A stretch of DNA of 43,643 bases from a virus, in IMG/VR virus record IMGVR_UViG_3300045988_006838, positions 1-43,643 of that record. One strand, written 5' to 3'. Positions 8,291 through 43,643 of the stretch are shown here, piece after piece. The position numbers and the translations under genes were made by a program. A model generated the notes under the pieces. It saw only the letters and a program-made list of their open reading frames with translations. It did not search any database and was not told the DNA's origin. The stretch's first letter is position 1. Each line of letters opens with the position of its first letter.

Positions 8291-9463
8291 TTACTTCGCC
8301 GTCACGGTGGCGTTACCAGCTTTCAGCGCCTTGTAGTCGGAGCTGGCTTCCACGACGGTGATTTCCTGGCTGTTTGCCGCCGTAATTTCAGACGTGCCGT
8401 CCCAAGCAGTCCACGTCTTGACGTTCTGGCCGTAGGTCACGGTTTCGGCAGCAGAGCCGACATTGTACTTGTAGACGTTGTCGGCGTTGGCCTTTGCGGG
8501 AGACACGGTGATCTTGGTGTTGCCGGAACTAGTGCCAGCGGCAGAAGTCACAGTCAGCGTGCCAAGCGTCTGTGCGCCGACAGTCGCCACGGCAATACCG
8601 TCCAGATACTCCGCCCACAGCTTCATGCCCATGATGGCATACATATCGCCGGTAGCCCGGGAGTAATCGCCCTCGACATGGACGCCGATCAGGTTGGTTT
8701 CGCCCTTAACAGTGTAGTTCAGGCCCAGCTTGGCAAAGTCGCTGTCACCGGGGTCAACATAGTAGAGGTCGATGTTCTCCACAGGCAGCGCAATAACCGT
8801 GCCCTGTGCAATGTACTTGTCAGGCAGCAGGAACAGGGTGCGGTAGCCAAGGAAGTTCTCCACGTAGTTCAGGCCGAAAACGGTCTGCACGGTAATTTCT
8901 TTGTCGCCCAGATAGTCGTAAGCGTCCAGAATGTTGGCAAAACCAACGATCTCGGTAACGTCCTTGTCCATACCCGCAAACTTGTCCAGCACCTTGCCCT
9001 TCGCCATAGCAAGCGCCCGCTGCCATGTGGTCTCGCTCAGCGTCAGAGTGCCGGTGCCCAGGAAGGTATAAAACTCACCCAAAATCTTATTCTGGAGAGC
9101 CACCAGAAAAGCATCGTCGGTCTTTTCCACGGCCACGTCAGCGCCGTACTTGGCAACGGATTCCAGTGTTACGCTCTTGGCGTACTTGGCGACCTCGATA
9201 TCAGCGTAGGAGACCGGCTCCACCTTCATTTTGGTGAAAGGAATCTCGTCACCCTCGGCAACAGAAGTGCCGCCCTGCAGCGTACCGTCAACGCTGGCTT
9301 TGTAAGACACCAGCTTAGTGCCAGGTGCCTTGCGGATAGGGCGCATAATGCCCATAATGTTGCGCAGCGCGTCCCAGTTGTCCGCGAATCGCGTTACAAA
9401 ATCGACCTCGCGGACGGAGGTAGAAAACTGACCGGTAGTGGTCACATTGTTTTTAGCAGCCAT
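8291..9463 (-). CDS. Major capsid protein (HK97-fold type) with C-terminal Ig-like extension
   Basis: 390 aa; RBS AAAGGAG; follows scaffold gene; C-terminal LTVTSAAGTSSGNTKITVSP...ATVTAK resembles a Big_2-like decoration domain. Confidence 0.8.
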   Translation of the reverse strand: MAAKNNVTTTGQFSTSVREVDFVTRFADNWDALRNIMGIMRPIRKAPGTKLVSYKASVDGTLQGGTSVAEGDEIPFTKMKVEPVSYADIEVAKYAKSVTLESVAKYGADVAVEKTDDAFLVALQNKILGEFYTFLGTGTLTLSETTWQRALAMAKGKVLDKFAGMDKDVTEIVGFANILDAYDYLGDKEITVQTVFGLNYVENFLGYRTLFLLPDKYIAQGTVIALPVENIDLYYVDPGDSDFAKLGLNYTVKGETNLIGVHVEGDYSRATGDMYAIMGMKLWAEYLDGIAVATVGAQTLGTLTVTSAAGTSSGNTKITVSPAKANADNVYKYNVGSAAETVTYGQNVKTWTAWDGTSEITAANSQEITVVEASSDYKALKAGNATVTAK

Positions 9464-16930: not shown

Positions 16931-17340
16931 TGCAGTCCTGCCCTGCTTTAGCGCTTCAGGGAAAGCCCCCGTCACTCGCTGTGGTCTCCCCTTACGGGGC
17001 ACCTATGCCGCATATAGTGCGTTTTCTTTCGGCTTCCGCCTATCAGCCTTGAGGAATACGCACAACCCTTCGGAACTCCACGGTAAACGCATGGCGGAGC
17101 GCCTACCGCTTCAATGTTCTGGCACACTTTCGGGCGGGACGCTATGCCACTTGCCCACGGTAGTGCCGCACCGCTTTTTTCGTCGCGGATTCTGTCTCTA
17201 CAGGCTCCGTATTGGCCAGCCGTTTTCTATGTGTCGGCACACTGTGGCCGGATGGGAGGCGCGACCTCCCGCCCCTGATCGTGGGGTAGCTCACGCAGTC
17301 CGGCGTATACCCGTCATATACCGCTGGCGGGTAAGCGGTT
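16931..17340 (-). ncRNA. Candidate large structured non-coding RNA (ORF-free, hairpin-dense; phage/tRNA-adjacent context as for ROOL/GOLLD-type RNAs)
   Basis: No credible ORF on either strand; many local helices on minus strand (GGGAGGucgcgCCUCCC, CCCCguaaGGGG, CCGGCC...GGCUGG enclosing GUGUgccgACAC, CGGUA...UACCG). Confidence 0.3.
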
Positions 17341-17368: not shown

Positions 17369-17452
17369 TGGAGGCATTGGCGGGAATCGAACCCTGCATC
17401 GTCCATCGGTGGCGGTTTCCTCCGTGCGCTCTTCCAACTGAGCTACAATGCC
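17369..17452 (-). tRNA. tRNA-like gene with non-canonical anticodon arm (isotype undeterminable)
   Basis: Minus strand GGCATTG TA GCTC AGTTGGAA GAGC ... GGGTTCGATTCCC ... CAATGCC T CCA: perfect 7-bp acceptor, D-arm, T-loop, encoded CCA; 30 nt instead of 22 between D and T arms; T-stem needs a bulged A. Confidence 0.5.
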
Positions 17453-19172: not shown

Positions 19173-19450
19173 CGCCTCACCTCCTCAATCCGCCCCACCA
19201 GCCGCTCCAATTTGTACCGGCAGAATGTCTCCACCTGTCCCGCGCAGTCGAACAGCATCACCATCTGCTGAAGCATGATCTGCACGTCGGCGATCTCCTC
19301 CGCAATGTGGGTGGTGTTCTCCTGCCCTCTGCTGTTTTTGCAAAGCTCCTTTGTCAGCTCGCTCATTTCCTCGATGGCCATTGTCACCTGTAATTCCTTC
19401 CCGAAGGTTTCCAGCGCCGCCTGACAAATTGCGTTATCGTCTAGCATCAT
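19169..19450 (-). CDS. MazG-like nucleotide pyrophosphohydrolase (small all-alpha type)
   Basis: 93 aa; ...MAIEEMSELTKELCK...HIAEEIADVQIMLQQM... matches the EExxE...EE(I/L)ADV metal-binding pattern. Confidence 0.6.
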   Translation of the reverse strand: MMLDDNAICQAALETFGKELQVTMAIEEMSELTKELCKNSRGQENTTHIAEEIADVQIMLQQMVMLFDCAGQVETFCRYKLERLVGRIEEVRR

Positions 19451-20307
19451 TTTGCGGTCACCACCGTATCAGCGCCCTGTACAGTCACCCAGCCATGCTT
19501 GAGACGCGCCTCCGCTTCCTTCATCTGGATTAGCTCCGGCGTAATGGATTCCGCAATGGTCTTGTTGGATTCTGCCTCAGCTTCCGCCTCAATGATCTTT
19601 ACAGCAGCCTCAGATTCAGCGATAACGCGATTTGTTTCCGCCTGCGCTTCCGCCGTCTGTTTGGCAAGTTCTGCGATCTCTGCATCCTGCTTGGCCTGCT
19701 CTTTTGCCCGTACCTTTTCCTGCAATGCAGAATCCAGTTCCACGTCAATGATCAGGGCGCTGGACACGTTGATACCATACTCTGTACTGAGTTTCTCATT
19801 CAGGTAGTCGGTAATAGCCTTGTTTACCTCCGACTTTTTGTCGGAATAGATGTCCATAACGGAGAATCTGGGGGTAACTTCCTTCACATAGGCGATAATG
19901 CTGTTCTGCACGCGACCCTCTACAATGGCCTCTCCGTCCATGCCGTTAAATTTCTCGTACAGGCTCACCACGCGGTCAGGCAGGAAATTGTAGTTGACCG
20001 TCAGATTAATGCCCACCATGCCGCCGTTGGCAGTGGCATCAATATGCCAATCTGCATGTTCGTCTGTGTTGTAGTCAGATGGATCGTCGGAAAAAACAAT
20101 CTGCTGCTGACTAACGGGAAACTGCTTGACGTGCTTCAATGGTGATAGCCAATGCCAGCCCTGTGTCAGCGTGTTTTGCTCCACGCCCTTTGCGGAATAC
20201 ACAACGCCCACATAGCCCACCTTGATTCTTGTCAGGCAGATGATGCAGAAAACAGCAACAAGCACCGCCAGCACGGCGGAAACAGCAATAGCGATACCTT
20301 TTTTCAT
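19447..20307 (-). CDS. SPFH / band-7 (prohibitin/HflKC-like) membrane protein
   Basis: 286 aa; N-terminal TM; ...IKVGYVGVVYS...; C-terminal Ala/Glu-rich coiled coil (AKEQAKQDAEIAELAKQTAEAQAE). Confidence 0.8.
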   Translation of the reverse strand: MKKGIAIAVSAVLAVLVAVFCIICLTRIKVGYVGVVYSAKGVEQNTLTQGWHWLSPLKHVKQFPVSQQQIVFSDDPSDYNTDEHADWHIDATANGGMVGINLTVNYNFLPDRVVSLYEKFNGMDGEAIVEGRVQNSIIAYVKEVTPRFSVMDIYSDKKSEVNKAITDYLNEKLSTEYGINVSSALIIDVELDSALQEKVRAKEQAKQDAEIAELAKQTAEAQAETNRVIAESEAAVKIIEAEAEAESNKTIAESITPELIQMKEAEARLKHGWVTVQGADTVVTAK

Positions 20308-20390: not shown

Positions 20391-20641
20391 CTTTTTCCCT
20401 CCGGCGTACTTAACGCCGCCAGATTAAACCGCAGCCCCTCATTGGCCTGCCGCAGCCCCTCATTGGCCTGCCGCAGCGCCTCTATCTCCCGCTGCTGGTT
20501 CTCGATCAGGTCAGCGGCAGCAAACTGCAATTCACTTTCGCAATCATCGCCCGCCGCAGGGCACTCTGTACAGTGTTCGCAAGAATCTTCACCGTTAAAT
20601 GCACAGCACCGCAGCGCGGTCACGATCTCATCTCTTGTCAT
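20387..20641 (-). CDS. Hypothetical Cys-rich / coiled-coil protein
   Basis: ATG 20641 with GGGGAGGAA RBS; CCAFNGEDSCEHCTECP...; contains a 21-bp x2 tandem duplication (20431..20472) encoding LRQANEG LRQANEG. Confidence 0.55.
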   Translation of the reverse strand: MTRDEIVTALRCCAFNGEDSCEHCTECPAAGDDCESELQFAAADLIENQQREIEALRQANEGLRQANEGLRFNLAALSTPEGKR

Positions 20642-20642
20642 G

Positions 20643-22449
20643 TCATTCCTCCCCAACCCATCTTTTTGTCACCGCGATGGGGAACGGCTCGATCTCGCTT
20701 GCCCACCGCGCCGTGCCTTTGCCGTGTATCCGCTCCCAGATCAGCGGGAACCCTCCGATGCCATCAAATAAGCTACCCAGCGTCGCGTCCTCCGGCAGAT
20801 ACCGCGCCATGCGCCGCAGCATCCAGTCCCAGAAGGGCAGGGCGATGGAGTTGCCCAGCGCCTTGTACCGTGGGCTGTCCGCACTTCCTTTCACTTTTAT
20901 TTCGCGCCCGCGTTTATCTGTTTTAACCCAATCCCCAATATCCGTCCATCCGTCTGGGAATCCTTGCAGCCGTTCGCATTCCATCGGTGTCAGGCGGCGC
21001 ACCACCATGTGCGTGATGGCAAGATCTGTGCTATCCTTAAAGTCCCGTTGCTTGCAACTGCTTGCAACCTCGGCGGCGCGGTAATATCCAAACCCGTTCA
21101 TCTGGTATGTAAGCGGCACTTGGTTTCCGCCCGTGCCCATCCTCGCCTGCAAACTGGGTGCCTGCTCCCCACACTCGCGGATGACGTCACAGGCGTGTGT
21201 CATGTCCAGCGCCACCACTGCGGGCTTATTCCCGCCGCACTCTGCGTTCAGTGTAGGAGACAGTTCCTCTTGATAGCCGATGCTCCGCGCCTGTTCACTA
21301 TTGCCCAGCTTAAACCCGGCGCACAATACGCTGTCCCGTGCCATGCCGCCGTTCTCGTTGGCGTTCAGGCTGTGCCATGCGCCATCCTGATCGTACACCC
21401 GCGCACTCTGCGCGTCCCACGGATTCATGCACATTACCCCGTGGCGGTCGCCAGCGGTCAGTGTAGGAGACGGGTCGCCCTCTTTCCCAATGCCAAGACC
21501 GTTGCCGCTTCCATCGTGGTTGCGGCTTTCTCCGCCGCCCTGCCATCTGGTGGCTTTGTCGTTGATGGGAATTGCCGTTGCAAATACGCCGTGCGAATGT
21601 GCGGCAGAAATGGTGTTCGCTGGGTCGCCCGGTTCTCCTACGCCAAATCCTGTTCCGCGCCCTAACGCTTTGCAGCGCGTAGCCACCATCAGGTTTATAG
21701 GCGTGGGCGTAAAAATCGCCTGGTCATTGCCCGTACCCAGCGTTCCGCTTTTCTCTGTCTGCACTAACGCGCCTTTTCCTCCTCCGTCACAGCCCCCCCT
21801 GATGCGGACTGCATAAGAAGCACCGCTTTCAGCCGCTCCGGCAGATCCTTCCCCCGCCGCTCCACTCTCCGCAGGATGCCCAGACACGCTTTCGCGGTCA
21901 AATTGTATTTGGGCAGCGGATTCTCCTCCAAAATCTGCGACAACCGAGATTCTTCGGCGACGCTGTGGCGTCCCCAGACGGATAACATTTCCTGTACGGC
22001 TGTCTCGGATGGTTTTTCCCCAGTCCTTAGCGTCGTGAGTTCGCCAAGCGATAGACCACCCATCACCGTCAATGGCTCCTGCTTTTGTCCATTTCCACTT
22101 TTTCGGCAGTCCAGATAAAGAAAATCCTGGTTCTGCGATACGCGCAATTTCTTCCAGCACGGCGTGGAAGTCTTTTCCTCTGTTGCTGCTGAATGCTCCG
22201 ACCACGTTTTCCCAAACGAGAAACCGAGGTCGGACCATGTCACCTGTCCGTCCATTCCGTTTGTCCTCCGCTCTCATTTCTTTTACGATGCGCACCTGCT
22301 CCATAAACAAGCCGCTTCGCGCTCCCGCCAGTCCGGCGCGTTTTCCGGCGATGGATAGATCCTGTCTAACAAGGTGAACCACCTGTAATACACCAAATGG
22401 GTTCAATCTCTTCCCCATTTATTTTCGTAATATCGCCTAAATGTTTCAC
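20643..22449 (-). pseudogene. dcm: Cytosine-5 DNA methyltransferase, circularly permuted and multi-TRD, split by a 4-nt insertion/TAG at motif IV
   Basis: 27-codon ORF 22449..22366 (GAGGTGA RBS, GTG; MKHLGDITKINGEEIEPIWCITGGSPC-TAG), then +1 frame QDLSIAGKR, FLVWENVVG (VI), GTPQRRRR (VIII), long Gly-rich TRD region, RRLTPMECERLQGFPDGW (IX), YKALGNSIALPF (X), then LGSLFDGIGGF (I) and WASEIEPFP (II) at the C-terminus. Confidence 0.75.
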
Positions 22450-22738: not shown

Positions 22739-23812
22739 TCAATACCTCACTCCGATGTAGTCCAGCACCCGCGCATAACCAAGACCGTCTTTCGTGGGCT
22801 TCCACAGCCCATCCGTGTCGAACGCACCACCGCCGATGCAGAACTGGTAGTGCTTCGGGTGCGTCAGTTTCATGCGTTCAAAGCGGTTGACGCCCTTTTC
22901 GAGGTGCGCACCGAACGCGCAAAACATACAGCCCGTCCTCTGGCATCCTGTGCAGTGCAGCTTGCAGTCGATCAGCGTCGCGCCGTAGTCGTTCTCGCCG
23001 TCGCTGGCCACAATGTCGCCGTACACGCTGGCGTATGGGAGTTGGTTGTCCACGATAAACCGCAGCACGTCTTGCCCCGTCCAAAAACTCATGGGCTTAG
23101 ATAAGGGGCGCTTCCCTTCAAAGGCGTTGCAGCCGGTTTCGCGCCATTTTTGCATCCGCAGAAGACTTTCCTCCGCCATTGTTGCCGTCGTGGGCTTGAC
23201 ACCCGCTCGGTGCTCATAGCTCTTTGATGGGGACTTTTTCATAATTTCACAACACTTGTCTGATATGAGGAATGGAGCTGAAAGCAAATACTCCCACTTT
23301 TCGCAGTTGTACATACTCTTTTCGCCATCTGAACGCAAGACTTCCCCACGCAAGAGTTTCATGCTACGACTTTCTGGTGATCGCCGCGCAGTTTCAATTC
23401 TGTGCGCCACATTCTTTCCTACGATGCTGTACCCGTACTTCCGCACCACCTGCCGAACGTTCATCTTCGGACGCAGGCGGTGGAGGTTGACGGTCACGCG
23501 CGGGAACTCGCGCCGCAGCCAGTCCGCGTATGTGTTCACAAATTTCTGGATTTCCGGGTATTCCAGCCCCGTGTTCACAAACACCAAGTTCAGCTCCCAC
23601 GGCGGTGTCCTGAAGCTCGACAGATACCGCGCCGCCAGATACGCCAGCACCGTGCTGTCCTTGCCGCCGGAGAAACTGACGTAGCACTGTCCGCCCCATG
23701 CGGTGTACCATTCGTCCAGTTTTTCGTAGGTCAGTATCTCCTTGTCCTGCACGTCCAGCGCCATCAGTTTCTTCGCCGCTTCATTCGTCAGCGGCTGATT
23801 TATCGGCAGCAT
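22739..23812 (-). CDS. PAPS-reductase-family PP-loop enzyme (DndC/IbrA/BrxP-like) with C-terminal Cys cluster
   Basis: 357 aa; SFSGGKDS PP-loop; C-terminal CKLHCTGCQRTGCMFCAFG cluster. Confidence 0.75.
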   Translation of the reverse strand: MLPINQPLTNEAAKKLMALDVQDKEILTYEKLDEWYTAWGGQCYVSFSGGKDSTVLAYLAARYLSSFRTPPWELNLVFVNTGLEYPEIQKFVNTYADWLRREFPRVTVNLHRLRPKMNVRQVVRKYGYSIVGKNVAHRIETARRSPESRSMKLLRGEVLRSDGEKSMYNCEKWEYLLSAPFLISDKCCEIMKKSPSKSYEHRAGVKPTTATMAEESLLRMQKWRETGCNAFEGKRPLSKPMSFWTGQDVLRFIVDNQLPYASVYGDIVASDGENDYGATLIDCKLHCTGCQRTGCMFCAFGAHLEKGVNRFERMKLTHPKHYQFCIGGGAFDTDGLWKPTKDGLGYARVLDYIGVRY

Positions 23813-24804
23813 TACTCAGCCTCCACCAACTTGCCCTTTACCAGCTTATACCAAGTGTCCGCTCTGATGTCCGTGCCGTCTACGACAAACGCTTTCCACT
23901 CTTTGATGTCCCAATTGTCCGCGTTTTCCTCACAGATCACCAGCACAGCACCAAGACCGCCTTTAATCTTCACATCGTTACCGCGAACAAGGCCGCATCC
24001 ATTTTCGCCAACAGAAACAGATCCTTTTGCGGTGGCTGCGCCGCTATCGCCTGCGGTGGCTGCGCCGCTATCGCCTGCGGTGGCTGCGCCGTAAGCGCCT
24101 GCGGTGGCTGCGCCGCTAACGCCTGCGGTGGCTGCGCCGCGATAGCCTGCGGTGGCTGCGCCGCGATAGCCTGCGGTGGCTGCGCCGTAAGCGCCTGCGG
24201 TGGCTGCGCCGCTATCGCCTGCGGTGGCTGCGCCGCGATAGCCTGCGGTGGCTGCGCCGCTAACGCCTGCGGTGGCTGCGCCGCTATCGCCTGCGGTGGC
24301 TGCGCCGTAAGCGCCTGCGGTGGCTGCGCCGCTAACGCCTGCGGTGGCTGCGCCGCGATAGCCTGCGGTGGCTGCGCCGCGATAGCCTGCGGTGGCTGCG
24401 CCGCTATCGCCTGCGGTGGCTGCGCCGCTATCGCCTGCGGTGGCTGCGCCGTAAGCGCCTGCGGTGGCTGCTTTCTGGTCGGTATGTTCCATTGTGGTAT
24501 GCGCCTTGACGTACTCAACGTGAGCCTTTACCAGACCGGGAATGCCGATCTCCGCGCCCACCGTAAGCTTCTTGGCAACGCGCTTGCTATCATCTCCACG
24601 TTCGTCGCTCACGCCGTCCATTTCCACTTCGCAATACCGGCTTCCTTCGCCGGGCGCGTAATATCTGAACACATCCAACGGCGCTTCACAAGCGTGCAAG
24701 CCCTGATTGCACAGCTTCACTTTGTCAACTTCCTGCGTGCCGCCGATCTCATACTGCAAACCTCTGCACTGCAAATTCTTGTCAAAACCCTTGTAAGCTT
24801 TCAT
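23812..24804 (-). CDS. Repeat protein: conserved phage N-terminal module (KAYKGFDKNLQCRGLQYE...GLHACEAPLDVFRYY) plus 18 x 8-aa AATAGxxG repeats plus C-terminal domain
   Basis: 330 aa; RBS TAAGGAGAA; repeats differ only in a dipeptide drawn from AY/DS/YR/VS. Confidence 0.75.
   Translation of the reverse strand: MKAYKGFDKNLQCRGLQYEIGGTQEVDKVKLCNQGLHACEAPLDVFRYYAPGEGSRYCEVEMDGVSDERGDDSKRVAKKLTVGAEIGIPGLVKAHVEYVKAHTTMEHTDQKAATAGAYGAATAGDSGAATAGDSGAATAGYRGAATAGYRGAATAGVSGAATAGAYGAATAGDSGAATAGVSGAATAGYRGAATAGDSGAATAGAYGAATAGYRGAATAGYRGAATAGVSGAATAGAYGAATAGDSGAATAGDSGAATAKGSVSVGENGCGLVRGNDVKIKGGLGAVLVICEENADNWDIKEWKAFVVDGTDIRADTWYKLVKGKLVEAE
24029..24471. repeat. 18.5 tandem copies of a 24-bp unit gcggtggctgcgcc[NNNNNN]gcct
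   Basis: The 18 invariant nt are identical in every copy; the variable hexamer is one of gctatc, gtaagc, gctaac, gcgata. Confidence 0.95.
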
Positions 24805-24816
24805 TTTTCATTCTCC

Positions 24817-25191
24817 TTATCGATATCTTCTTGCTGAAATCTCCGTAATGGCATAGCCGTATCTGGCGTGAAACATTCGGGCCTTGATAGAGTAGCTTTC
24901 AGTCCTTACCCCCTTCACGTCCTCGGTGACGCGGAGCCAGCAAATGTTGCCATACCTGTCCGGCGCGGTTTTGCGCTCATAGTCAAAATCTGCCTTGTAG
25001 TCCACGCCAAGCACACGCTGCCCGTCCAGCCCGGTAAACGGCTCCTGCAAGCAGTATGTTTTCTGCAACTGCAAGTTCCTGATCTGACCGGCACGCAGCA
25101 GCAAAATCAACTCATCATACCTCCGTGCTTCTGCCTGAGAATCAAACGTCAGGTTGCCGCGTTTGGCCTTTTTCGCGTTGTACTTACCCAC
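24817..25191 (-). CDS. DUF1064-family protein (putative PD-(D/E)XK / resolvase-like)
   Basis: GTG 25191 with AAAGGGGG RBS preferred over track ATG 25221; (M)GKYNAKKAKRGNLTFDSQAEARRYDELILL...LQLQ matches the typical DUF1064 N-terminus. Confidence 0.6.
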   Translation of the reverse strand: MGKYNAKKAKRGNLTFDSQAEARRYDELILLLRAGQIRNLQLQKTYCLQEPFTGLDGQRVLGVDYKADFDYERKTAPDRYGNICWLRVTEDVKGVRTESYSIKARMFHARYGYAITEISARRYR

Positions 25192-26240: not shown

Positions 26241-26869
26241 AAACTGCCCTCCGTATTGCCGTAGTCATACGAAAATCCGCTTTTCGCGTTCTTCTGTTCA
26301 TCCTTCCAGCGAGTTTCCCAGCCTTGAACAGCCCGTTTCCAGTCTTTCATGCGGTTTTTGCCTACCATCCATCCCTTTTGTGCATAGAAGCAAACAAACT
26401 GCTCTGCGTTGATGTGATAGCCTTTTTCTCGGCAATATTGCTCCACGTCGGAAATGGATGGTGGGATAAATCGCGCCTCGCGCATATCTCTCTTGCCATC
26501 GTTAGATGGCAGAGCATTGGTTTCGGTATCGGTTTTGGTTTCGGTATAGCCATTTTTGCCATTAGCATCAGTGGCTTTGCTATTTTTGCCATTGGCAAAA
26601 ATGCCTTTGCCATTTTGCCATCTTGCGTCAGCTCCGGCTTTTCCAGCCTCTCGCCTTGCATCGGACACTTCCTTGTAGTTTGCCTTGAATCGATCTTCCT
26701 GTGCCATCACGCGTTTAGCGTAAAATCTCTCATTGCCACAGAGCGCTATCTGCTCTCCCGTCATGCTGTATGCCAGCAATGCCCGCGTTAGCCGACCGAA
26801 CTCTGCATCGTTGAGTGCTTCCATCTCCTCTAAATAATCATAGGGGAGTGCAGCGTAGTTTCTTGCCAT
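26237..26869 (-). CDS. Replication initiation / replisome organiser protein
   Basis: 210 aa; upstream of DnaC-like loader; low-complexity linker over DNA iterons; C-terminal ...EQYCREKGYHINAEQFVCFYAQKGWMVGKNRMKDWKRAVQGWE typical of phage replisome organisers. Confidence 0.55.
   Translation of the reverse strand: MARNYAALPYDYLEEMEALNDAEFGRLTRALLAYSMTGEQIALCGNERFYAKRVMAQEDRFKANYKEVSDARREAGKAGADARWQNGKGIFANGKNSKATDANGKNGYTETKTDTETNALPSNDGKRDMREARFIPPSISDVEQYCREKGYHINAEQFVCFYAQKGWMVGKNRMKDWKRAVQGWETRWKDEQKNAKSGFSYDYGNTEGSL
26519..26622. repeat. Iteron-like repeat cluster inside the replisome organiser gene (candidate ori)
   Basis: GGTTTCGGTAT x2 (26519, 26537); TTTGCCAT(T) x4 (26555, 26585, 26606, 26614); inverted TTTTTGCC att GGCAAAAA (26583..26601). 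Confidence 0.45.
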
Positions 26870-39010: not shown

Positions 39011-39455
39011 CGTCCTCTTCCTCCTCCACCTTGCGTTTCTTCTTCCCCTTTATTTCGCCCACAAGTGCCGCCAGCGCGTCGAACTCTTTACGGGTCACAT
39101 ATTCCGGAGGGTAAGTTTTCTGCGCGTCAGAGGCGCTTGCAAGGCGTTCTACAAGGTCATACGTCTTGAGCGTCGGCTTGCCGCTTGCATCGGCCTGTTT
39201 AAGGTACACCACGGGAGCCGTGCTGTCCCACAGCGCAATGGCGGAGTTAGGCGCGATCAGCCAGTTTTCCGCCTCCGGCCTACCAGCCACCCACTGCACG
39301 CCGCCCTGCGCTACCGGGTTCTGCATGAGCGGAATCTGCGGTATCTGCGGTATCTGCTGCGGTGGCATGGTCTGCATCTGCTGCTGCCGAAGTTGGGCGA
39401 GGTTGTCCTGCATCGGCTGCGGGTAATAAGGGTTGAAATACGAGTTAAATGCCAT
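39003..39455 (-). CDS. Cargo gene 3: Gln/Pro-rich N-terminus, globular middle, KKKRK plus acidic tail
   Basis: 150 aa; 9-bp x2.7 repeat at 39334..39357 encodes QIPQIPQIP; ...VVYLKQADASGKPTLKTYDL... Confidence 0.55.
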   Translation of the reverse strand: MAFNSYFNPYYPQPMQDNLAQLRQQQMQTMPPQQIPQIPQIPLMQNPVAQGGVQWVAGRPEAENWLIAPNSAIALWDSTAPVVYLKQADASGKPTLKTYDLVERLASASDAQKTYPPEYVTRKEFDALAALVGEIKGKKKRKVEEEEDDE

Positions 39456-42558: not shown

Positions 42559-42784
42559 CCGTCACCACCCCCAGCGTCTGCAAAGCCGCCTTGTACTGCT
42601 CAATTTCTTCCTGGGCGGTCAAGACCTCCGCGCCATCCCGCCAGAACTTTCCTTCACTATACGTGTCTCCAATACCCACCGGACGGTCATGGAGCGCCAC
42701 CGCACCAGGGAAATCTTTAGCATTAGTATCTCTCAATGCTATAATATTAATTACTATATTATCTTGAATAATGGCGTATCTCAT
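42548..42784 (-). CDS. Small hypothetical protein of the fibre module
   Basis: 78 aa; RBS TAAGGAGGAAAC; MRYAIIQDNIVINIIAL... Confidence 0.5.
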   Translation of the reverse strand: MRYAIIQDNIVINIIALRDTNAKDFPGAVALHDRPVGIGDTYSEGKFWRDGAEVLTAQEEIEQYKAALQTLGVVTDED

Positions 42785-43503
42785 GTAGTTTCCTCCTTAT
42801 GTTGGCGAATAATGACTATACCGTCAGCTGCTGCTATAGTAGTACCATTATAATAGGATCCACCATTACCTGAATTTGGGATGCTCATAGTAAGATTACT
42901 GCCGCCACCGGAAGCGTACAGGTCGCCGTCTGCTTCGCCAAATTCGCGGGTGGTAGTGCCTTGGCCCTTGCCGCCAGCGGTGTTGCCCGTCGCGCCGTCG
43001 CTACCATCCGTGCCGCCTTCTGCCTTGCCACTCGAACCAAGTTCACCGCCCCCACCAGAACCGCCTGCCCCGCCAGGCCTATGGTCTTTTGCATCACCTT
43101 GCGGAGAATGTTTTCCTCCTTCCGCCAATAAAGAAAACGCAGTAGTATTACCACCATCTGAACTAACGACCGAACTCGATGTGGCAGTTTTTCCTCCGGC
43201 TCCAATTACAATAGGATAAATTGTATTAGCCATTAATACAATAGATTTTCCTGTCGCAGTATATCCTGCACCACCAGATCCGCAATAGGATCTTCCCCCG
43301 CCGCCACCGCCGCCTACTAGAAATCCATCTATATTCATATTTTTTAATGGAGTAAAATTTCCAGAACTTAAAAACTTAATTTTCCAAGGTTTTCCTTCAA
43401 TAACCTGGTAAGTTCCATCTCCACCTGTCCAATTGAAGTCCTCGCCGATGATAGGCGCGGAAATGGCGCTGCCGCCCACAAAAATACCCTCTATTTGAAT
43501 CAT
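42781..43503 (-). CDS. Glycine-rich-domain tail fibre/receptor-binding accessory protein
   Basis: ATG 43503 with GGAGGTGATAATCG RBS and ATGA overlap with the fibre stop (track start 43611 is an extension); GGGGGGGRSYCGSGGAGY..., paralogous to the Gly-rich part of 894..3395. Confidence 0.6.
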   Translation of the reverse strand: MIQIEGIFVGGSAISAPIIGEDFNWTGGDGTYQVIEGKPWKIKFLSSGNFTPLKNMNIDGFLVGGGGGGGRSYCGSGGAGYTATGKSIVLMANTIYPIVIGAGGKTATSSSVVSSDGGNTTAFSLLAEGGKHSPQGDAKDHRPGGAGGSGGGGELGSSGKAEGGTDGSDGATGNTAGGKGQGTTTREFGEADGDLYASGGGSNLTMSIPNSGNGGSYYNGTTIAAADGIVIIRQHKEETT

Positions 43504-43643
43504 ACGATTATCACCTCCACAGGAATATCGACCGCGGGCACAGCGCCCGCCGCCTTGACCGTCAGCGACCCCGCCGTCTGCGCCGTCACACGGGGCTGCG
43601 CCGCGCCCCACGCGGCGAACTGCTCGTCGGTGGCGCTCTGGGC
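43500..43643 (-). CDS. Tail fibre protein, 3' end (continuation of 1..907 through the circular junction)
   Basis: Frame continuity: 907 + 89 nt = 996 = 332 codons; ...AAWGAAQPRVTAQTAGSLTVKAAGAVPAVDIPVEVIIV-TGA (43502..43500). Confidence 0.75.
   Translation of the reverse strand, partial: AQSATDEQFAAWGAAQPRVTAQTAGSLTVKAAGAVPAVDIPVEVIIV
43589..43643. repeat. Terminal overlap copy 2 (identical to 1..55)
   Basis: See 1..55. Confidence 0.95.

Follow-up and report, generated by a model that had tools for sequence, protein, structure and literature searches.

Transcription activator-like effectors (TALEs) are built from tandem, near-identical repeats with a variable dipeptide. Their repeats are helical units of 33-35 amino acids (aa) with the dipeptide at positions 12-13, each unit reads one DNA base, and the dipeptides form a small, stable code. 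In fungal NOD-like receptors (NLRs), repeats with high internal conservation (HIC; HET-E/NWD WD40, ANK, and TPR) are nearly identical to one another apart from four hypervariable positions, which are under diversifying selection and control ligand specificity; units are gained, lost, and shuffled, their number and order are polymorphic, unequal recombination is given as the cause of their concerted evolution, and assembling them takes long reads (PMC13449251). Hypervariable, internally homogenized repeats are a hallmark of arms-race recognition molecules such as fungal NLRs, and within the literature that we searched we did not find such domains described for an early cytoplasmic phage protein. 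Here, we analyzed a stretch of viral DNA of 43,643 nucleotides (nt) (the window; positions 1 to 43,643 of IMG/VR record IMGVR_UViG_3300045988_006838), in which an early gene at 23812..24804 encodes 18 octapeptide repeats, AATAGxxG, between two conserved end domains. The units are identical in DNA except at four bases of two codons, and the array may form a hypervariable binding surface. The gene and its parts are as follows (pLDDT, predicted local distance difference test score).

23812..24804, minus strand: the complete DUF7666/octapeptide-repeat/C-domain gene, with an ATG start, 330 aa, and a stop codon (open reading frame [ORF] list, translation)
24813..24818, minus strand: Shine-Dalgarno sequence AAGGAG, 8 nt 5' of the ATG and overlapping the stop of the DUF1064 gene upstream (read from the sequence)
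24526..24804, minus strand: DUF7666 N-domain, aa 1-93 (Pfam PF24703, conserved columns, AlphaFold2 pLDDT ~90)
24472..24525, minus strand: connecting helix and linker, aa 94-111 (DSSP helix 87-102 in the AlphaFold2 model)
24040..24471, minus strand: 18 perfect 24-bp units AATAGxxG, aa 112-255 (unit analysis, AlphaFold2)
24048..24187: copy 1 of a 140-nt exact internal repeat, its partner 216 bp (9 units) away
24264..24403: copy 2 of the 140-nt exact internal repeat (self-comparison of the array)
23815..24039, minus strand: a half unit (AATA) and the C-domain, aa 256-330 (PHROG 27197, phmmer, AlphaFold2 pLDDT 90-97)
23810..23814, minus strand: TAATG stop/start overlap with the downstream gene for a protein resembling 3'-phosphoadenosine 5'-phosphosulfate (PAPS) reductase (coordinates and sequence)

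The TAATG overlap suggests translational coupling of the target to the PAPS-reductase-like gene. No export signal is visible in the protein sequence, and on that sequence we take the product to be cytoplasmic. Four residues of the N-domain (C13, C32, H37, and C39) are conserved and possibly form a metal site.

Tandem Repeats Finder delimited the array to 24028..24471 (period 24, 18.5 copies, score 713), in agreement with a first-pass annotation that a model had made from the letters alone. That annotation had described 18 constant bases without a substitution in any copy, together with a hexamer that takes four values. A column count over the 18 full units bears out the constant bases, and the hexamer does take four values, but two of its bases, the third positions of unit codons 6 and 7, are constant as well. 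This leaves 20 of the 24 bases invariant and four variable, all of them at positions 1 and 2 of these two codons (GGC NNT NNC GGC GCA GCC ACC GCA on the gene strand). The four unit types, DS (six units), YR (five), AY (four), and VS (three), follow one another along the protein exactly as had been written: AY DS DS YR YR VS AY DS VS YR DS AY YR YR VS AY DS DS. The 18-nt scaffold GGCGCAGCCACCGCAGGC is present in 17 exact copies plus two with 3 mismatches at the array ends, and every copy of GGCGCAGCCACCGCAGGC in the window lies inside the array, with ~0.12 matches expected by chance.

The array stands, as the same annotation had proposed, between a conserved phage N-terminal module and a compact, conserved C-terminal domain. 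Residues 1-93 align with positions 1-94/95 of the Pfam profile DUF7666 (PF24703; E 1e-32, 112.9 bits against a cutoff of 27), and in a Pfam scan with E up to 1 this was the only family matched, with no match to Pentapeptide, Ice_nucleation (PF00818), or TALE. Three PHROG families of unknown function, 4433, 18079, and 27197, correspond to the N-domain with repeats, the repeats alone, and the C-domain, respectively; the match to 4433 has an E of 2e-51, and that to 27197 lies on residues 240-329. A homolog search of 5.8 billion proteins returned 5690 matches. All of the best 120 share the N-domain, the AATAGxxG units, and the C-domain in this order; protein length mostly changes in increments of 8 aa, equivalent to 3-25 units, and the scaffold AATAGxxG is kept in 1143 of their 1190 units. 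A phmmer search of 1.84 billion representatives with the C-domain recovered 289 clusters (E <= 0.001), and in the 150 clusters listed the domain is C-terminal or nearly so. In distant members, which retain both end domains, the units are 9 aa long (NTGDCSAAS, ATGRQGAAS, and ASGDGSRQA). Across the family, whose hosts are Bacillota, Bacteroidota, and Pseudomonadota, the copy number ranges from 0 to about 35 units. In two members (L089 and L093), the octapeptide units have diverged at many positions, with 19 unit types among the 20 units of L093, and homogenization has therefore been lost in some lineages.

Five members come from cultured phages:

Salmonella phage ES18, gp53: 11 x 27 bp
Phage S107, orf54: 4 units
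Phage SEN22, SEN22_35: 22 units
Pseudomonas phage phi2, ALY08205: 16 units
Blautia phage Montmirail, WAK79228: 16 units

All five have 9-aa (27-bp) units with perfect scaffolds and 3-4 variable nucleotides. ES18 gp53 and its cultured relatives share with the window protein the DUF7666 N-domain, the perfect repeats, and the C-domain, and their hypervariable dipeptide is likewise flanked by small residues (TGxxSAATN or NTGxxGASS; 4-22 units). They differ in having a unit of 9 rather than 8 aa and in the dipeptides used (DQ, NW, YQ, YC, NR, and others). In databases, these proteins are annotated as "function unknown" or mislabeled as "c-type lectin precursor" or "flagellar hook-length control protein." All cultured-phage members lie in early or accessory regions. 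In the early-left operon of ES18, S107, and SEN22, the family gene comes just after that for the N antiterminator; in SEN22, a gene annotated as superinfection exclusion lies between N and SEN22_35, directly adjacent to the latter and on the opposite strand (locus L130, 121-708 and 901-2046). A blastn search of E. coli complete genomes for a homolog of ES18 gp53 found none, and a literature search on DUF7666, on phage hypervariable, octapeptide, or solenoid repeats, and on ES18 gene 53 found no paper on the family.

The variable residues behave quite differently from the scaffold. The best 120 homologs use 57 dipeptides, with 1-10 (mostly 3-6) per protein, and the first position is mainly D, Y, N, or A while the second is mainly S, R, Y, F, or C. 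The states are joined by single-base steps (DS-AS-AC-AY, DS-DR-YR, and DS-VS). Hence, the four-letter alphabet of the window is a lineage-specific snapshot of a mutational network; the discrete, TALE-like code to which the first-pass annotation had likened it is not supported, and the survey of homologs that it had proposed returned lineage-specific sets instead of the same four dipeptides. The same survey did turn up different orders. Proteins with identical N- and C-domains have arrays of 3-20 units that share an alphabet and mostly the same end units, and one phage with 99.9% identical flanks carries a 10-unit array that includes AY AY AY. This triplet is missing from the window array, so the 10-unit order cannot be derived from it by collapse.

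To compare sites within arrays, we used 90 distinct arrays. Within an array, nucleotide diversity averages 0.42 at positions 1-2 of both variable codons, as against 0.044 at synonymous and 0.009 at non-synonymous sites of the scaffold, so the variable codons are ~10x as diverse as the synonymous sites of the scaffold around them. The 447 distinct hexamers of this set specify 443 different dipeptides, and the scaffold is perfect in 36 of the 90 arrays. Synonymous codons of the scaffold differ between lineages (GCT GCC ACG GCT GGT versus GCA GCC ACC GCA GGC) but are uniform within an array. The tenfold excess at the variable codons and the uniform scaffold codons together indicate concerted evolution by gain, loss, and exchange of units, combined with diversifying selection at two residues. 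Homogenization by concerted evolution also accounts for the absence of synonymous drift that had been noted at the outset. Cassette shuffling, offered then as another cause, is not supported where it would draw on units from elsewhere, as no copy of the unit lies outside the array in the window. Among 118 relatives, identical units are in excess at lag 6 (144 bp, 48 aa; 279 observed versus 223 expected, z 4.4) and slightly under-represented at lags 2-3. The lag-6 excess could stem from duplication of blocks of units, from a period in the structure, or from the k-mers used in assembly. Shuffling tests of unit order gave no charge or aromatic signal at lags 1-4.

Measured against the fungal repeats, the window array differs from its consensus at 21 of 144 residues, which gives by hand a repeat similarity coefficient of ~0.85, where 0.7 is the threshold for HIC repeats (PMC13449251). 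The family also combines hypervariable positions, by the diversity values above, with polymorphic number and order of units (3-20, mostly from short-read sequences). The two systems differ in that the units here have 8 aa, not ~40, and are predicted to form a beta-solenoid, not a WD40, ANK, or TPR fold, and their sequences are unrelated; moreover, the window protein is encoded by a phage early gene, has no NTPase domain, and is not a cellular immune receptor. The hyv prophage genes of "Candidatus Liberibacter asiaticus" likewise contain intragenic tandem repeats that vary in number between strains. The hyv repeats are much longer and unrelated in sequence, and we know of no description of a fixed scaffold with two hypervariable residues in them.

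We modeled the protein with AlphaFold2 and a 60-sequence alignment. The model has a mean pLDDT of 87.6, with its lowest-confidence block at residues 101-110 (pLDDT 61), and places one short strand on the AAT of every unit. The array is thus predicted to be a beta-solenoid capped by the two end domains, a fold that the first-pass annotation had anticipated. The same annotation expected the variable residues to line one face; in the model, they are indeed exposed, but in a Gly-flanked AGxxG turn at the solenoid edges. The strong purifying constraint on the scaffold residues argues against a disordered linker. A Foldseek search of the PDB gave no match below E 0.76; the best, none of them significant, were to beta-helices, left-handed ones among them: an ice-binding protein (E 0.76), LpxD, and the C-terminal domain of MinC.

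With moderate confidence, we favor the view that the array is a hypervariable binding surface, mounted on constant end domains and keeping pace with a partner that evolves fast, because its design matches that of the HIC repeats of fungal NLRs. In this view, the protein is a cytoplasmic accessory product of an early replication-module operon and has a rod of 18 octapeptide units between its two constant domains. Rapid gain, loss, and exchange of units, likely by slipped-strand events or unequal recombination between 24-bp units, keep the units identical in DNA, and point substitutions at 4-5 nucleotides of the two codons are retained far above the synonymous level. As an outcome, each lineage holds a small dipeptide set of its own and each phage its own order and number of units. 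In the predicted structure, AAT would form the solenoid strand and the dipeptide (D/N/Y/A, then S/R/Y/F/C) the exposed turn, which would run along the rod edges. Arranged in rows, the variable residues may then set binding specificity, with a component of host defense or exclusion, or a protein of a competitor, as examples of a partner, and the constant end domains would supply an invariant activity or anchoring.

Several points weigh against this view. The binding partner is one that we infer entirely. AlphaFold2 gives confident yet unrealistic solenoids for perfect repeats (PMC11795689), and the beta-solenoid, which rests on such a model, is therefore a prediction. The diversity figures are rough, being drawn from phylogenetically related and mostly short-read sequences; most arrays are derived from short reads, and at least one "variant" is probably a collapse. 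Members without repeats exist (L118 and L119) that keep both end domains, so the repeats are not essential to the core function of these domains. Lastly, no annotation gives a function, and searches of NCBIfam, PADLOC, and the PDB by sequence and by fold returned nothing significant; the PDB sequence profile search gave just a low-complexity match to ribosomal protein S21e.

An extension of the binding-surface reading is more tentative, and we regard it as possible, though short of probable. It holds that temperate phages of at least three phyla (Bacillota, Bacteroidota, and Pseudomonadota) carry a self-diversifying recognition solenoid directed at host defense or superinfection exclusion, that its exposed dipeptides form a "barcode" that is continually reshuffled by recombination between units and selected for new specificities, and that DUF7666 is an ancient effector shared with T4 RIIB. 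If true, the array would do for a virus what hypervariable repeat domains do for immune receptors, serving to bind, neutralize, or escape fast-evolving factors. The family is large: gut prophages of Bacillota and Bacteroidota, along with Salmonella and Pseudomonas phages, contribute thousands of homologs. It could reveal a new class of phage counter-defense or exclusion determinant and could yield a compact natural scaffold for binder engineering. Members occur in ES18, SEN22, phi2, and Montmirail, which are in culture and amenable to genetics, and a programmable specificity surface is therefore a directly testable hypothesis.

The rival explanation that survives best, although we consider it unlikely, is evasion: the protein, or its constant domains, would have a fixed job, and its exposed dipeptides would vary to escape host immune sensors and not to track a target. 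The diversity signature would be the same as that of a binding surface. Moreover, T2 RIIB directly triggers the Tmn defense, and a single residue decides activation (PMC13001434), which bears on the family through the N-domain. Several RIIB orthologs of T4-like phages match the DUF7666 fold in BFVD, weakly (Foldseek E 4e-3 to 5e-2), and T4 RIIB has the motif C..CxxGLHxC in common with DUF7666, the CxxGLHxC signature lying at residues 247-262. The similarity is weak, however, when the DUF7666 domain is aligned with T4 RIIB by hhalign (two runs, E 0.007-0.028, probability 2-6%), and Pfam DUF7666 does not match T4 RIIB; we keep the relationship as a lead. Both RIIB and the target are early phage proteins tied to prophage- or defense-mediated exclusion (PMC13001434); they differ in that RIIB has no repeat array. 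Against evasion, a phage could more easily lose than diversify an accessory gene whose product is merely sensed, and a regular scaffold showing dozens of variable residues is typical of binders.

Two side observations concern T4 rIIB itself (NC_000866, 167965-168903). At residues ~205-312 of its product, C..CxxGLHxC is followed by a beta-rich segment resembling DUF7666, and the N-terminus matches helix-turn-helix (HTH) families just under the Pfam cutoffs.

We judge it improbable that the array is a spacer or ruler that sets the distance between the N- and C-domains, with two unconstrained positions varying neutrally. The range of copy numbers from 0 to ~35 with conserved end domains, including members without any repeat, would suit such a role. 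Neutral sites, however, cannot surpass synonymous diversity, and the variable codon positions exceed that of the scaffold about tenfold. In addition, nearly every DNA variant alters the amino acid, as the near-equal counts of hexamers and dipeptides attest, and the residue spectrum (D/N/Y/A and S/R/Y/F/C) is restricted rather than random.

A nucleic-acid-related role, either as a TALE-like reader or as a decoy that mimics DNA in the manner of pentapeptide-repeat proteins, had been suggested by the first-pass annotation, and we now hold it to be very improbable. In its favor are the regular repeat with two variable residues per unit, the location of the gene among genes for DNA metabolism and DNA modification, and a Foldseek match in BFVD to a phage protein named "Pentapeptide." Against a reader, the array has a period of 8 aa, without sequence or Pfam similarity to TALE repeats, and the family uses at least 57 lineage-specific dipeptides in alphabets that differ even between near-identical phages, unlike a four-state code. 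Against a decoy, the period and the lack of a Pfam Pentapeptide match set the array apart from pentapeptide-repeat proteins of the Qnr/MfpA type, which consist of tandem A(D/N)LXX pentapeptides in a right-handed quadrilateral beta-helix with an acidic, DNA-like surface, and no significant fold match was found in the PDB. Known DNA mimics are strongly acidic. The array has a net charge of -1 and its relatives a mean of -0.12 per unit, and we rejected the DNA mimic on the charge of the array.

Ice-nucleation, antifreeze, and pentapeptide-repeat proteins also consist of short units rich in Gly, Ala, Thr, and Ser that are predicted to stack as a beta-solenoid. The ice-nucleation repeats, octapeptides and 16-mers, have the motif AGYGSTxT, which TAG[YD]x of the array resembles. 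The target nevertheless has no match to PF00818 with E up to 1 and no Foldseek match below E 0.76, and these families lack a hypervariable dipeptide.

The first-pass annotation had cautioned that such an array is hard to assemble from short reads, and the caution was justified. About 14 of 80 IMG/VR contigs terminate within the array (L043, L047, L051, L053, L055, L057, L059, L060, L065, L066, L068, L072, L074, and L078), so that metagenome assemblies recurrently break there. Within the array, the longest exact repeat spans 140 nt and starts at 24048 and again at 24264 (offset 216 bp); precisely these 216 bp are missing from one contig (k119_...) whose flanks match the window at 100% identity over 8.5 kb. 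By convention, its name suggests a MEGAHIT assembly with k=119, and the loss is probably an assembly collapse. The lag-6 surplus of identical units, at 144 bp, is also near common k-mer sizes. Copy numbers from short-read data are accordingly lower bounds, with the practical warning that database copies under-report array length. That the window array itself is such a product, with a chimeric or collapsed order, we nonetheless consider extremely improbable. The same 330-aa protein is called on two further public assemblies, one of which is identical to the window in DNA; the other, at a distance of 5 substitutions in 6993 nt, still keeps all 18 units and their order. An array of this design, with 17 units of 6 types on a perfect scaffold, lies in the complete chromosome of an Ihubacter, and the design recurs in the genomes of Bacteroides mediterraneensis and Megasphaera cerevisiae isolates and in the five cultured phages. 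Given the identical order in an assembly five single-nucleotide polymorphisms away and the same design in finished and cultured genomes, the window array is not an assembly artifact.

To targeted mutagenesis, by a diversity-generating retroelement or similar, or to silent donor cassettes as the source of variation we give almost no credence: variation confined to NNT NNC resembles the diversification of AAY codons, but the remaining adenines of the unit never vary, the dipeptide states form a single-step substitution network, the neighboring genes are not conserved, and this source is excluded for the window by the lack of a reverse transcriptase among 31 Pfam-scanned ORFs (all large ones included) and of a template or donor copy of the unit outside the array.

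The window comes from a temperate, siphovirus-like gut phage and encodes an integrase, HTH regulators, a terminase, an SPP1-type portal, and an amidase. Upstream of the target lie genes for NinB, an HNH protein, a single-stranded DNA-binding protein, DUF6291, a DnaC-like loader, and a DUF1064 resolvase; downstream lie those for the PAPS-reductase-like protein, a C5 methyltransferase, and an SPFH protein. The target thus sits in the replication/DNA-modification part of the early operon, which agrees with the DNA-metabolism setting described at first pass. We located family loci by tblastn and clustered the upstream and downstream neighbors of 92 of them; no fixed partner emerged, and the neighbors are highly variable. 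With neighbors that are not conserved, the target behaves as a stand-alone accessory gene. Three genes of the window form a DNA-modification cluster:

22739-23812, minus strand: PAPS-reductase-like protein with weak similarity to SspD/BrxP/DndC
20643-22418, minus strand: C5 cytosine methyltransferase, 591 aa
15406-16728, minus strand: ParB-N6/N4 methyltransferase fusion

Further observations on the window are listed here.

19447-20307, minus strand: SPFH/Band 7 protein (PHROG 200, "lipoprotein"), an unusual membrane-scaffold gene in the early region
8291-9463, minus strand: 390-aa ORF directly 3' of the scaffolding gene, presumably the major capsid protein, with an S-layer SbsC C-terminal domain at its end
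42781-43611, minus strand: Gly_rich_2 domain protein at the contig end
33189-33404, plus strand: FuFi-1 RNA in the lysogeny-switch region (Rfam, 88 bits, above the gathering score)
17014-17119, minus strand: drum RNA (Rfam, 79 bits, above the gathering score)
17372-17452, minus strand: tRNA just 5' of the packaging genes (Rfam, above the gathering score)
26549-26621: 30-bp tandem repeat x2.5 within the DUF6291 gene, directly ahead of that for the DnaC-like loader; possibly iterons or a replication origin
20429-20482: short tandem repeat, 21 bp x 2.6
39329-39357: short tandem repeat, 9 bp x 3.2

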